Origin: Methanothermococcus sp. Ax23
GTDB taxonomy: Archaea; AGJL01; Methanococci; Methanococcales; Methanococcaceae
Assembly: GCF_049075655.1 (NCBI RefSeq)
Contig: NZ_CP157522.1
Location: 544,001-608,000, forward strand
DNA: 64,000 nt
Direction of reading: 5' to 3'
This document shows positions 31,920 through 43,160 of the stretch, piece after piece. The position numbers and the translations under genes were made by a program. Each line of letters begins with the position of its first letter. Position 1 is the first letter of the stretch. The notes beneath the pieces were generated by a model. It had not been told where the DNA came from, ran no database searches, and saw only the letters and a program-made list of their open reading frames with translations.

Positions 31920-32774
31920 CTATCCCCTCATATTTTTTATATACTCTGGTGTGGTATCCTGCGGGACGCCATAATGAAACTCCCTTGAAGCTTCAAAAAT
32001 TTTTATACATCTATCTCCAAATCTCTCAACATCTTTTAAAAACATTCCAAATTGAACATAATAGTTTATATCCTCTGATTTACATCCCCTATCTGAAATA
32101 TTTTTCATAATTTCATCTAATTTTTTATGCAAGTTTTCCTCTAATTCATATATTTTAAAACTTATTTTTTTATTTTTTACCACATCCATGGCAATTATAA
32201 ACATTTCTTTGATAATAGCAAATATTTCATCAACATTGTCGGATAAATAATCCTTTACCTCTAATCCATTTGTAATCTCTTCGGCAATATTTGATATATA
32301 ATCTCCGCATCTTTCAATATTTGAAGCAATTAACGATAAAAGCATTGCCTGTTCCATTGGCAAATACTTTAAACTGTCCATTTTAATTGATAGGTGAATT
32401 TCTTCTTCCATTTTATTTAATGTATAATCCTGAAAAATTATGCTCTTTGCATCCTCTAAATTGTGAGTTTTTAACGCATTAAATGCTTTATCCAAATTAT
32501 ATAATACATTATTTCCCATCTTTTCAAACATTTCAATGATATTATTCAATGGCTTGTCAATGTCTTGATATACGCCAAGTTCAGACAACTTATCCATATT
32601 AACAACATAAGGATGCATTACAACCCTTTTTTCTATCAAAGGCTTTAAAAGTTTTGCAACATACCTTCTACTTATATTAAGTTTTTGGGCTATCTCATCC
32701 TGAGTCTCTGGTTCATCTTCAATTATAATCTTGATAATTGCCGCCAATGTGGCTTCTTTTCCCCTTAGCATCAT
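31920..32774 (-). CDS. HTH plus PhoU-domain regulator
   Basis: TQDEIAQKLNISRRYV HTH; PhoU motifs IERCGD and VERFGD. Confidence 0.85.
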   Translation of the reverse strand: MMLRGKEATLAAIIKIIIEDEPETQDEIAQKLNISRRYVAKLLKPLIEKRVVMHPYVVNMDKLSELGVYQDIDKPLNNIIEMFEKMGNNVLYNLDKAFNALKTHNLEDAKSIIFQDYTLNKMEEEIHLSIKMDSLKYLPMEQAMLLSLIASNIERCGDYISNIAEEITNGLEVKDYLSDNVDEIFAIIKEMFIIAMDVVKNKKISFKIYELEENLHKKLDEIMKNISDRGCKSEDINYYVQFGMFLKDVERFGDRCIKIFEASREFHYGVPQDTTPEYIKNMRG

Positions 32775-32989
32775 ACCACAGATTTTTATTTTAATTTTTA
32801 ATCAATTTTTTAAATTAATTTTATAAATATATTGGATTTATTATATTTAGATTTGTATGATATATACTTCATATAACCACCTTTTTTGATATTAAATATT
32901 ACTTAGGTATTCAAATAATATATTTTTAAGTAATCAAATAAAAAGTTTATTAACAGAAATGTTTATATGTGAGTTAATCATATTGTTTA

Positions 32990-33247
32990 ATGTCCAGCTC
33001 TCATCAACTTCAACTTAAACTTTAAACGCTCCATTGACATCTGCATGGAATATTTTTTTAAGCAACTCCCGAGCTGTTCCCTTATAGAACAGTAGGGAGG
33101 ATGGACTGTCCCATAATAATACGGGAGCGGGTGTCGATGATAAAGGTATTCAAAATATATCGGATATAATTACATGAAACTTATGGTATATTTTAAATAT
33201 CTTTTGAGATACCTTATTATTCAGTTCAATATACATCCATAAAACCA
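32990..33247 (+). ncRNA. Standalone TnpB omegaRNA-like RNA with tnpB-antisense 5' leader (putative)
   Basis: TATA box TTTATATG at 32962; scaffold shares motifs and predicted pseudoknot with the RNA downstream of tnpB (41740-41915). Confidence 0.65.
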
Positions 33248-33256
33248 ATACAATAA

Positions 33257-34027
33257 TTATTGGTGGTTATATGATTTAAGCACTTCATCTTTTAGTTTAT
33301 CAACTATTTGTTTTTTATATTCTAAAAATTCCACAGTATTTCTCTTCCTAGGTCTATCTAAACTAATATCCACAATATCCTTTACTTTTCCCGGTCTTGC
33401 AGTCATTATAATTACTCTATCTGATAAATAAACTGCTTCTTCAACACTGTGAGTTATAAAAACTACGGTTTTTTTATCTTTTTCCCATATCTTTAAAAGT
33501 TCATTTTGCAATATTGTTCTTGTTTGGGTATCCAGAGCTCCGAAAGGTTCGTCCATCAGCACAATTTTTGGGTCATTTGCAAGGGTTCTTGCAATTGCCA
33601 CCCTCTGTTGCATTCCTCCACTGAGCTCATATGGGTACGCATCTTCAAAACCTTCCAAACCTATCATTTTTATAAACTTTCTTGCTACTTCATCCCTTTC
33701 TGCCTTTGGAACTCCTTTTATTTCCAAGCCGAAACCCACATTTTCCAAAACAGTTCTCCAAGGTAGCAAGGTATATTGCTGAAACACCATGCCCCGTTCT
33801 GCGTCGGGTTTTTCGATTTTTCTTCCTTCAATAAGTATCTCTCCAGAAGTGGGTTTTTCAAGCCCTGCAATCATCCTCAATATTGTGGATTTTCCGCACC
33901 CACTTGGTCCCACAATAGATAAAAATTCGTTGTTTCTAACTTCAAAATTTACATTATCTACTGCTAAAACTTCCTTTTTCTCCGTGATAAATTTCTTAAC
34001 AACATTTTTAATTTCCAATATCGCCAT
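33257..34027 (-). CDS. ABC transporter ATPase (nitrate/sulfonate type)
   Basis: GPSGCGKST, LSGGMQQR and MDEPFGALD. Confidence 0.93.
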   Translation of the reverse strand: MAILEIKNVVKKFITEKKEVLAVDNVNFEVRNNEFLSIVGPSGCGKSTILRMIAGLEKPTSGEILIEGRKIEKPDAERGMVFQQYTLLPWRTVLENVGFGLEIKGVPKAERDEVARKFIKMIGLEGFEDAYPYELSGGMQQRVAIARTLANDPKIVLMDEPFGALDTQTRTILQNELLKIWEKDKKTVVFITHSVEEAVYLSDRVIIMTARPGKVKDIVDISLDRPRKRNTVEFLEYKKQIVDKLKDEVLKSYNHQ

Positions 34028-34094
34028 AAAAACACCAATTAGCATTTTTTAATGCAGCAAATAAAATATATAAAATAAATATAAATTATAAACT

Positions 34095-41715: not shown

Positions 41716-41739
41716 AATATCACCAAAATTATTAAGTTA

Positions 41740-41915
41740 GGTCATGCAATTGGTTTCAAATGTTTCAAAGTATATCATTTGATAATTAAACTAACCAATT
41801 GTTTTATAAGTTTCATCGTTGGTTTCGTTGCCGTCCCCAACTCGACTTAATAGATGTGACCCGCACCCTCCTATCCCTCCGTCTCTATTAAAGAGAGTTT
41901 GGGAATTGCTTACGA
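41740..41915 (-). ncRNA. TnpB omegaRNA scaffold
   Basis: GC-rich structured block downstream of tnpB (GGGATAGGAGGGTGCGGGTCACATC); loop GGTCA can pair with terminal TGACC. Confidence 0.65.
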
Positions 41916-41969
41916 AGTAAGAGAGCTACGAAAACCGCAGGTTTTTGTTTAATCGCTTACTAAATCTTA

Positions 41970-43160
41970 CTAAATATATACTTTTACAGGATGAGTTGGT
42001 AATTTACACAAATCTATCCCTTTAAAAGCATTATCAACCACTTTTCTCATAATATTGTAAGCACCATTAACATCAGCATTTACAACCCATCCTTTTAATG
42101 TTTTAAACAATCCTCTACAAAACCTCTTACCTGCGTATTCTTTCTTTTTGCCTATTTCTTCATTATCAAAGAATGAACATTTAGATGTGTAGCTTTCCTC
42201 TATTAGTACCACTTTAATACCAACCTCTTCTGCCTTATAAACAATTTTATCAATTAATGTCTTAAATGGTATTAAAGTGAAAGTTTGATTATTTTTCTTA
42301 CCTAAACTTACTTCCTGCTTCCAATCATCATTGTATCCAATGATGATTTTAGAAACTTTATTCTTAACGCAGTAATTAACTACAAATCTACTTGCCTTAT
42401 GTATCCAATCACTGACTTTAAAGTTTCTCTTGGTTATCACCTTTTTTAGTTTCTTACCTGATTTTATACCTTGTTTATCGTAAATAGATTTTAGGTTGGA
42501 AACAATTTTATTGAAAAACTGGTTAATAGATTTAATCCCTTTCCCATTGTCTTTAATGATAATCGGTTTATCACCAAAATTATTTGTCATTGTAATAATG
42601 TTTTTCATTCCTAAGTCGATGGATATTATTTTGTTATCATTTAGTTCCATAATTATAGGTTCTTTCTCGTAAATAATTTCTATTTTATAACCTCCTAATG
42701 TTGGTATTAATCTGACTTCCCTGATGTTAGTATCGTCGTTTAATCGTGTATCTACTGTTAAATTTATTTTCTTTGGAAATCTTAATTTTCCATCTTTTAT
42801 TTTACATTGTTGGTTTGTGAAAACCAACATAAAAATACCATCTTTTGGTTTAAAGGACGGTGGTTTTGGTTTTGCTTTAAACTTATTTGAATTGTTCCTG
42901 TATTTTTTTAAAGCTTTGAAATATGATTTCCAATTTCTACTGACTATTTTTAGTATCTGCTGTGCTGATTGTGTTGGTAGTTCTTTGTAGTTCTCACTGT
43001 CTTTTAGTAGTTTATTCAGGTCATTATATAATAGTAATTTATTTTCTTTTAGATGTTGTTTTATTAAGTATGTTGCTTGGTTGTATAGATTCTTTGATAT
43101 ATGGGAGTAATAGTTTAAGGTTGGATTTAGTGGAATATAGATTATTTCAGTTCTTTTCAT
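41970..43160 (-). CDS. tnpB: RNA-guided endonuclease TnpB (rearranged RuvC-II type)
   Basis: SIDLG (RuvC-I), IIIGYN at the canonical E position, EESYTSK, NADVNGAYNI (RuvC-III). Confidence 0.93.
   Translation of the reverse strand: MKRTEIIYIPLNPTLNYYSHISKNLYNQATYLIKQHLKENKLLLYNDLNKLLKDSENYKELPTQSAQQILKIVSRNWKSYFKALKKYRNNSNKFKAKPKPPSFKPKDGIFMLVFTNQQCKIKDGKLRFPKKINLTVDTRLNDDTNIREVRLIPTLGGYKIEIIYEKEPIIMELNDNKIISIDLGMKNIITMTNNFGDKPIIIKDNGKGIKSINQFFNKIVSNLKSIYDKQGIKSGKKLKKVITKRNFKVSDWIHKASRFVVNYCVKNKVSKIIIGYNDDWKQEVSLGKKNNQTFTLIPFKTLIDKIVYKAEEVGIKVVLIEESYTSKCSFFDNEEIGKKKEYAGKRFCRGLFKTLKGWVVNADVNGAYNIMRKVVDNAFKGIDLCKLPTHPVKVYI

Follow-up and report, generated by a model that had tools for sequence, protein, structure and literature searches.

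Antisense tnpB fragments between promoter-like boxes and an omegaRNA-type scaffold in a small repeated element of Methanothermococcus

The 64,000-nucleotide (nt) window analysed here, by which we mean the whole stretch of DNA, comes from the archaeon Methanothermococcus sp. Ax23, whose genome (G000, with coordinates on C1) has a size of 1.67 Mb and a G+C content of ~31%. The 482 bp that separate a PhoU-like gene (31920-32774, minus strand) from a gene for an ABC ATPase (33257-34045, minus strand) hold a 345-bp element (32871-33215) that consists, on the plus strand, of a left end (LE) with promoter-like boxes, two inverted scraps of a tnpB gene, and a scaffold of the omegaRNA type. There is no open reading frame of at least 50 amino acids on either strand between 32775 and 33256, and a tRNA search gave no match. 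Rfam at gathering thresholds returned nothing for the window and only sub-threshold noise for 32800-33300.

The borders of the element are given by a second copy at C1:344643-344989 (copy B), which has 345 of 348 bases (99%) in common with the copy of the window (copy A) and lies in unrelated flanks. The two sequences agree from 32871 (ATATAACC...) to 33215 (...GAGATACCTT). Contigs of run X20, which is probably DNA of a near-identical strain and as such uninformative on conservation, contain both copies with the same ends as in the genome. Furthermore, a contig of run X1 carries an element that is diverged by ~10% and matches at 32871-33214, and a near-identical copy in metagenome contig L163 has the same ends next to a third left flank; in all, the two genomic copies, L163, and the X1 contig have four different left flanks. 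A diverged copy that shares promoter, both scraps, and scaffold is found in metagenome contig L161. The scan of metagenome contigs with the junction pattern yielded four stretches, two of which are chance matches in contigs of 61% G+C. In genome contigs the same pattern gave two matches, both by chance and bacterial, and a 14-base core pattern gave at least 120 chance bacterial matches and was uninformative. The end of the scaffold is sharp: the two genomic copies are the same up to 33215 and unrelated beyond, and all members of the family end in ...ACCT(T). A common motif was not found in the left flanks of the copies, and a target-adjacent motif is not derivable from these flanks. On the right, where a guide would be located, the flank is a ~47-nt relic of an IS5-like transposase gene (33216-33262), of which 33216-33233 is identical in 18 of 18 bases to three intact IS5-like transposase genes (C1:345406, 1173889, and 1325466) and antisense to them. 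One of these three genes sits ~430 bp past copy B.

The LE (32871-32990, plus strand) contains two TATA-like boxes. One of them (32946-32953) is conserved in the family. The other belongs to the AGAAATG/TTTATATG box at 32955-32969, which a previous reading of the window made from the letters and open reading frames (the sequence-only reading) had proposed as a plus-strand promoter and which is present where that reading placed it; its TATA-like part (32962-32969) lies 16 nt downstream of the family box and is TTTATATA in two variants. The LE matches a stretch upstream of the serine-recombinase gene tnpA in a full-length element of G003 (L029:216-304, E 1.3e-4) and is homologous to the LE of the protein-less element L024 (E 9e-11). 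The G003 element, from the same genus, is IS607-like, with a serine recombinase gene that precedes tnpB and, upstream, an LE homologous to 32871-32960.

The scaffold (33056-33215, plus strand) scores 149 bits with covariance model R1. The predicted structure has a 5′ stem-loop, a small hairpin, a closing stem (GGGUGUC/GAUACCU) whose internal loop, GAUGA...UGAGA, resembles a kink-turn, and a long hairpin at its terminus. Homologues from other genera could be aligned well, and RNAalifold on five sequences, which is independent of the alignment fitted to the model, predicted 50 pairs, of which 14 show compensatory changes. Among 40 Methanococcales genomes, 7 contain matches to R1, 12 in total; in a 13-member alignment (L161 added), 90.9% of the cells are paired compared to 40 to 54% with partners slid, and 21 of the 50 pairs are compensatory, a count equalled by none of 500 shuffles, although the fitting of this alignment to R1 favours the pairing figures. 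Three of the 12 genome matches (L015, L023, and L017) are located at the 3′ end of tnpB frames of 503 to 506 amino acids that run into the scaffold. By these sequence criteria, 33056-33215 is a conserved structured RNA of the omegaRNA kind, and the view of the sequence-only reading that a standalone omegaRNA-type scaffold lies here behind promoter-like boxes of its own was borne out. The same reading had described a covarying pairing of a loop with the 3′ end (GGACTG/CAGTTC). This pairing was rejected: CAGTTC (33222-33227) is flank DNA past the end of the repeated unit at 33215, and in copy B, which has GGACA, the pairing is missing.

In the scaffold, 33129-33141 together with 33206-33215 form the closing stem, a 3-nt bulge, and tandem G-A/A-G pairs, with the look of a kink-turn. 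Throughout the scaffold family GAUGA and UGAGA are kept, and we read the loop as a putative kink-turn; given this conservation, an L7Ae-type protein may bind the archaeal guide scaffold.

Because both ends are homologous to the ends of full-length elements, the LE on one side and the scaffold as right end on the other, we trace the element to the IS607/IS1341 type: 32871-33215 is a discrete nonautonomous derivative of such a tnpB transposon, similar to palindrome-associated transposable elements (PATE) or miniature inverted-repeat transposable elements (MITE), from which tnpA and, apart from two short pieces, tnpB were lost. Candidate transposases in the host genome are two serine-recombinase homologues (C1:46730-47275 and C1:1511913-1512506), which are only 36 to 38% identical to the TnpA of G003. 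In G015 lies a 125-bp relative (C84:11115-11239, locus L031) that has no more than 87 nt of LE and the final 41 nt of the scaffold. Mobility therefore requires neither the leader nor the greater part of the scaffold, and this minimal element defines what the family needs in order to move.

Between the promoter-like boxes and the scaffold lies a leader of 66 nt that holds two inverted pieces of 24 and 40 nt. In agreement with the sequence-only reading, 32991-33014 is the reverse complement of VEVDESWT codons (fragment II′, minus strand, from the region of a relocated RuvC-II glutamate), and its second piece was confirmed as well, in that the reverse complement of 33017-33056 reads KIFHADVNGAFKV (fragment III′, minus strand, RuvC-III region). 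A single frame of the minus strand reads KKIFHADVNGAFKV, a stop between the pieces, and VEVDESWT. We could also reproduce the reported match of the second piece to the tnpB of the window in 16 of 19 positions, with the mismatches at third codon positions. On the plus strand the order is II′, III′, scaffold, and therefore each piece was flipped in place. Compared with full-length relatives at the DNA level, 17 to 19 of the 24 bases of fragment II are the same, and 7 of its 8 residues are identical to each relative. Fragment III is antisense to three full-length tnpB genes with 79 to 84% identity over 32 to 43 nt (E 1.7e-6 to 4.4e-5), and its antisense tblastn match has an E of 4.6e-4. As judged from these alignments, the antisense pieces match tnpB by homology and not by chance.

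The full-length relatives encode the cognate TnpBs, proteins of ~500 amino acids that carry KLVEVDES(Y/F/W)TSK (GIKLVEVDES...) and (L/K)(I/V)(F/L)HADVNGAFNIL and that read ...(I/V)(F/L)HADVNGAFNILKVGLK... at RuvC-III. Since both motifs are found in these proteins, both pieces derive from the TnpB subfamily of the scaffold itself, and the leader is indeed built of antisense pieces of the cognate tnpB, as had been supposed. In four aligned TnpBs the canonical RuvC-II glutamate site is occupied by glycine, and an invariant glutamate is located in the ES(Y/W/F)TS strand. This fits the TnpB clades with a rearranged RuvC-II that are presented in sections of PMC10691335, and therefore the label "shifted RuvC-II" of the sequence-only reading is reasonable. 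In a phmmer search of a cognate TnpB against solved structures, no match was obtained.

At E ≤ 1e-40 the cognate subfamily is present in 3 of the 40 Methanococcales genomes (G026, G032, and G003), and at this threshold it was not found in the host genome, nor in G015, the holder of L024. Outside the element, a six-frame translation of the host genome has no further HADVNGA, and the other matches to ESWT or VEVDE are unrelated. Hence, the partner that the sequence-only reading expected did not turn up as a tnpB of this genome.

Among the resident proteins, the one nearest to the cognate TnpBs, and thus to the lost partner, is the product of the window's own tnpB gene at 41.9 kb (P0001, 396 amino acids, 41970-43160, minus strand), with 31 to 35% identity. 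It is followed by a cis-encoded scaffold (41737-41925, minus strand) that belongs to a family of its own, R2, with a separate covariance model. Of the resemblance between the scaffold at 33 kb and this RNA, as noticed in the sequence-only reading, the layout stood but a common family did not: R1 scores the RNA at 16.9 bits (E 0.28), and the R2 model gave no match to the scaffold at 33 kb at E ≤ 1e-4. Neither P0001 nor the cognate subfamily has a CxxC...CxxC zinc finger; a 75% identical orthologue in G013 and the tnpB fragment of orphan r791 (see below) keep it, and all have glycine at the canonical RuvC-II site. The abundant tnpB family of the genome (C1:1279017-1280323 and ~8 sisters) has a frame that is interrupted after about residue 74 by a two-hairpin module of ~47 nt, across which the frame shifts. 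The module resembles one at the start of the cis scaffold of the window (41953-41904, minus strand), and its first hairpin is repeated, in frame, at a later position of the gene. An inserted mini-element, a piece similar to an intron, and a regulatory module are all conceivable.

Contigs of 181 to 186 nt with 100% identity, covering 33008/33014 to 33193/33200, were found in three runs of three studies (X1, X2, and X3). X2 is certain to be an RNA library, and X1 and X3 are runs labelled "metatranscriptomic WGS"; the contigs show neither strand nor ends. They contain piece 2 and the scaffold as far as the long hairpin reaches and hint, at most weakly, at a discrete RNA of ~190 nt. In X2 and X3 there was no cover on 32700-33013, with promoter and piece 1, or on 33201-33400, with the final 15 nt of the scaffold and the guide site, and the 100% contig of X1 spans 33008-33193. 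Of the proposed transcript over leader and scaffold, piece 2 and the scaffold are thus represented in contigs of an RNA library.

The sequence-only reading had suggested that the leader docks on, or silences, a tnpB mRNA. When the 66-nt leader was paired with 17 resident tnpB-like places, predicted duplex energies of −23 to −36.5 kcal/mol were obtained, compared to a background of −29.4 ± 5.1 kcal/mol for 400 random 1.1-kb segments. Perfect complementarity extends furthest, over 14 nt, at the IEVDEAYTS codons of one tnpB (C1:1424430-1425692), and the other 16 places have runs of 6 to 8 nt. Apart from this single run the energies stay in the background, and no resident tnpB has either motif. 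In consequence of the missing cognate tnpB and the background-level complementarity, docking or silencing is not supported for the element in its host genome.

As to the conservation of the antisense segments in related copies, which a docking role had been said to need, the leader is no better kept than the scaffold. In L161 there are 5 changes in the 66 nt of the leader, 11 in 158 nt of scaffold, and 2 in the promoter. The X1 variant has 12 substitutions (seven at third, four at first, and one at second codon positions of the antisense frame) and 1 insertion in the leader, compared to 9 substitutions and 2 deletions in 158 nt of scaffold and 8 substitutions in 120 nt of LE, so that the leader changed ~3 times as much as the scaffold. 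In this variant GAG became GTA and AGC became GGC (ES to VG), GCA became ACA (HAD to HTD), and a frameshift occurred, by which the "catalytic" codons and the frame were lost. Over three variants, 10 of 15 leader events are at third positions, and 12 of 25 events outside the leader are in the same phase according to our own counts. Separately, 6 of 13 (L161) and 9 of 17 (X1; 29 of 33 differences listed) nonleader changes are in this phase, and a hand-computed Fisher test for L161 gave ~0.054. With the same phase in 12 of 25 events outside the leader, the third-position bias is therefore not clearly specific to the leader.

Antisense pieces of tnpB are found in sister elements as well. The proposal to build a covariance model and to look for antisense leaders in other orphan copies, made in the sequence-only reading, proved fruitful: L024, from another genus, has 64 nt antisense to the tnpB of G026 (90.6%, E 3e-19), and 4 of 6 differences are synonymous. 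The R2 family has five further orphan copies in the genome beyond the cis scaffold of P0001. One of them, r791 (C1:790860-791265, about 1267-1672 of locus L177), has an IS607-type LE with a TATA-like box, then 171 nt antisense to tnpB (C1:790960-791130) that begin about at the predicted start site, and then the R2 scaffold, which the piece abuts; the piece is an intact fragment of 57 tnpB codons with RuvC-II strand and CxxC zinc finger. The r791 leader is 80 to 85% complementary to at least 10 resident tnpB genes, and its predicted duplexes reach −102.6 kcal/mol with the tnpB of the window and −115 to −136 kcal/mol with 10 more (background −51.6 ± 9.4, minimum −75 kcal/mol). Orphans r363k and r232k contain a decayed version of the r791 piece, with indels, before the scaffold, and in the R2 orphan r93k a 33-nt stretch runs antisense to the window's tnpB at codons 111-121 (84.8%, E 1.7e-5). 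Of the five antisense pieces, four come from the RuvC-II/zinc-finger/RuvC-III end of tnpB. Besides r791, the R2-family protein-less copies lie at C1:93805-94230, 232180-232640, 363255-363640, and 1578075-1578480, and all end in ...GCATGACCT. About 30 nt of the R2-family LE are complementary to the region of the terminal hairpin of the scaffold.

Orphans with other contents exist in the R1 family. Five of them (L013, at 1467-1491, L022, L016, L021, and L019) carry a sense piece of tnpB just 5′ of the scaffold, a hairpin of KVSMSGDR codons, in which GTCTCC...GGAGAC changes compensatorily to GTCCCC...GGGGAC. The hairpin itself therefore seems selected, perhaps as the 5′ part of the guide RNA, a processing site, or a recombinase site. 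L018 has no tnpB fragment.

In sum, our data point toward a reading, to which we give a probability of roughly 0.6, in which the flipped pieces are scars of the miniaturisation of a tnpB transposon and evolve with little or no constraint. Strand or template switching, or filler synthesis, during the repair of a gap or break would have produced the inverted scraps, with sequences near the scaffold as the likeliest templates. Transposons with inner deletions that carry filler or inverted segments are known to arise when gap repair is interrupted and switches strands (PMC3814204). TnpB elements are described, in parts of 10.1101/2023.03.14.532601 and PMC10691335, as being restored at cleaved empty sites by recombinational repair, and this would offer ample chances for such accidents. 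The promoter in the LE would then transcribe leader, scaffold, and some flank, and the RNA might be usable only as an orphan guide for a compatible TnpB in trans. This scar model fits because the target is missing, because the leader of X1 is changing fast, and because the pieces of r363k and r232k are decaying. Two other ideas on the leader were tried and rejected. A single deletion would explain everything if full-length elements had native antisense pieces in their 5′ untranslated region, but L027, L028, and L029 have no such self-complementarity. A locking of the scaffold by piece 2 is seen in the minimum free energy fold, in which 33032-33044 pairs with 33127-33139 (13 bp), but as a conserved structure it was rejected, since the pairing is lost in L024 and X1 changes 33036 and 33133 without compensation.

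Several observations weigh against scars. A single deletion cannot yield two pieces that are each flipped with their order kept, and at least three strand switches or several events would be needed; neither a parent allele nor junction microhomology was identifiable in the AT-rich DNA, and the mechanism is accordingly one that we infer. At least three to four orphan lineages have antisense pieces of tnpB placed between LE and scaffold, which is more often than we would expect of random scars, and in three antisense lineages the piece is within ~10 nt of the scaffold start. The separate flipping of the two pieces, their flush placement between start site and scaffold, and the many independent antisense cases are poorly explained by repair accidents. 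In L161, furthermore, each of the five leader changes affects the third position of a codon in the antisense frame, with three successive codons among those changed, and all five FHADVNGAF differences between the 33-kb copy and L024 are at third positions too, although the latter may alternatively reflect descent from different tnpB alleles.

It is for these points that we keep, as a minority view, a selected antisense leader that pairs with tnpB mRNA at its best-conserved codons and thereby tethers the orphan scaffold, masks an inhibitory region, or silences tnpB, while the scaffold stabilises the RNA. Consistent with it, the antisense piece reaches from about the predicted transcription start to the start of the scaffold in both the 33-kb element and r791, the source region is the same in most pieces, the third-position bias is 5 of 5 in L161 and 10 of 15 in the pool, and piece 2 and scaffold occur together in RNA-library contigs. 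An AmaTnpB mRNA stretch near the RuvC-II codons, moreover, inhibits the ribonucleoprotein and may pair with omegaRNA, according to parts of PMC10278001; there the sense mRNA acts on its own ribonucleoprotein, unlike an antisense copy in a separate RNA, for which an interaction is our proposal by analogy. On the other hand, the absence of the cognate subfamily from G000 and G015, the background-level duplexes apart from the 14-nt run, a codon bias that is not distinct from control regions, and the loss of first and second codon positions and of the frame in X1 speak against selection, as do the decay of the pieces in r363k and r232k, the origin of the r93k piece from a poorly conserved N-terminal region, and the five orphans with a sense piece. 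As antisense leaders recur in sister elements, the general docking or silencing idea keeps a small probability, and with the strong complementarity of r791 to 11 resident tnpB genes a docking model is directly testable. It is imaginable, though we doubt it, that nonautonomous omegaRNA elements of Methanococcales gained antisense leaders repeatedly and retained them, and that their chimeric RNAs, by pairing with the tnpB mRNA of autonomous relatives, act as RNA-level parasites or regulators on the TnpB system, which would hijack nascent TnpB, neutralise the inhibitory mRNA region, or throttle tnpB. The 33-kb copy would then, just as tentatively, have outlived its target, and r791 would still face 11 targets.

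Less probable still is a take-over by the host as a small structured RNA, e.g., in a kink-turn ribonucleoprotein, with a job that does without TnpB and a leader that is mere baggage. The RNA-library contigs despite the lack of a cognate tnpB in the genome, the conserved GAUGA...UGAGA loop, the upkeep of two copies with 99% identity, and the retention of the locus in a related strain would suit such a role, but the copies behave as mobile DNA with differing flanks and a patchy occurrence in 7 of 40 genomes, no synteny-conserved locus of the scaffold was seen across species, and the conservation of the scaffold is explained equally well by its role in full-length elements. That both copies are trans guides that widen the targets of P0001, with copy A directed to the IS5-like transposase genes, is least likely of all: P0001 is the nearest resident relative, its own RNA has the same motif order, the 18-base match lies at the guide position, and standalone omegaRNAs are reported in parts of PMC10691335 to work in trans with compatible effectors, but 31 to 35% identity is low, R1 and the R2 model do not find each other's families, and neither a common nor a target-adjacent motif emerges from the DNA to the left of the copies.

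Standalone mobilised omegaRNAs and PATE-like omegaRNA elements are described in sections of PMC10691335 and the preprint 10.1101/2023.03.14.532601. Like these, the 33-kb element is protein-less, has both transposon ends and a kept scaffold, was mobilised, and would need TnpB and transposase in trans; unlike those described there, it has flipped tnpB pieces between promoter and scaffold, and its genome has no cognate TnpB. Some of the review literature calls the role of orphan omegaRNAs unknown. With a cis omegaRNA (also called reRNA), the RNA shares the scaffold at the 3′ end of tnpB in three relatives, the covariation, and a drop of conservation at the element end followed by a variable flank where a guide would sit, a likeness drawn from sequence comparison. 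The cis omegaRNA is processed at its 5′ side by TnpB, as stated in parts of PMC10278001, whereas the RNA at 33 kb would have a promoter of its own and would not be cut out of tnpB mRNA.

Inverted internal segments in the MITE Goblin, derived from the mariner element Ozma, are ascribed in part of PMC3814204 to template switching in abortive gap repair. The element at 33 kb is similar in that a miniaturised element keeps both ends and an inner parental piece is reversed; it differs from this eukaryotic cut-and-paste DDE transposon by two separately flipped pieces and by the recurrence in several archaeal lineages. In the IS200 family, the antisense RNA comes from the opposite strand of the gene that it targets (cis-antisense to tnpA). 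The control of an IS200-family transposase by an antisense small RNA is mentioned in the discussion of PMC10278001, and common to both is a transposon-borne RNA complementary to a transposon mRNA; in contrast, the complementary part at 33 kb is a displaced tnpB fragment that a different element carries, joined to a guide scaffold, and the genome lacks its target. A leader of flipped tnpB fragments was not found described in the literature that our searches returned, supplements not covered.

The element at 33 kb is a clean archaeal orphan: its ends are defined, its parent family is of the IS607 type and has a TnpB with relocated RuvC-II glutamate, its scaffold is described by a covariance model, and there are signs that it is expressed in vent communities. 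If the flipped pieces are scars, they would document the miniaturisation of TnpB transposons through strand switches during the repair of breaks or gaps and would link this process to the homing-by-repair life style of these elements. If, instead, the antisense leader were selected, tnpB would for the first time be seen under antisense action, and nature would have fused an antisense arm to a guide scaffold.

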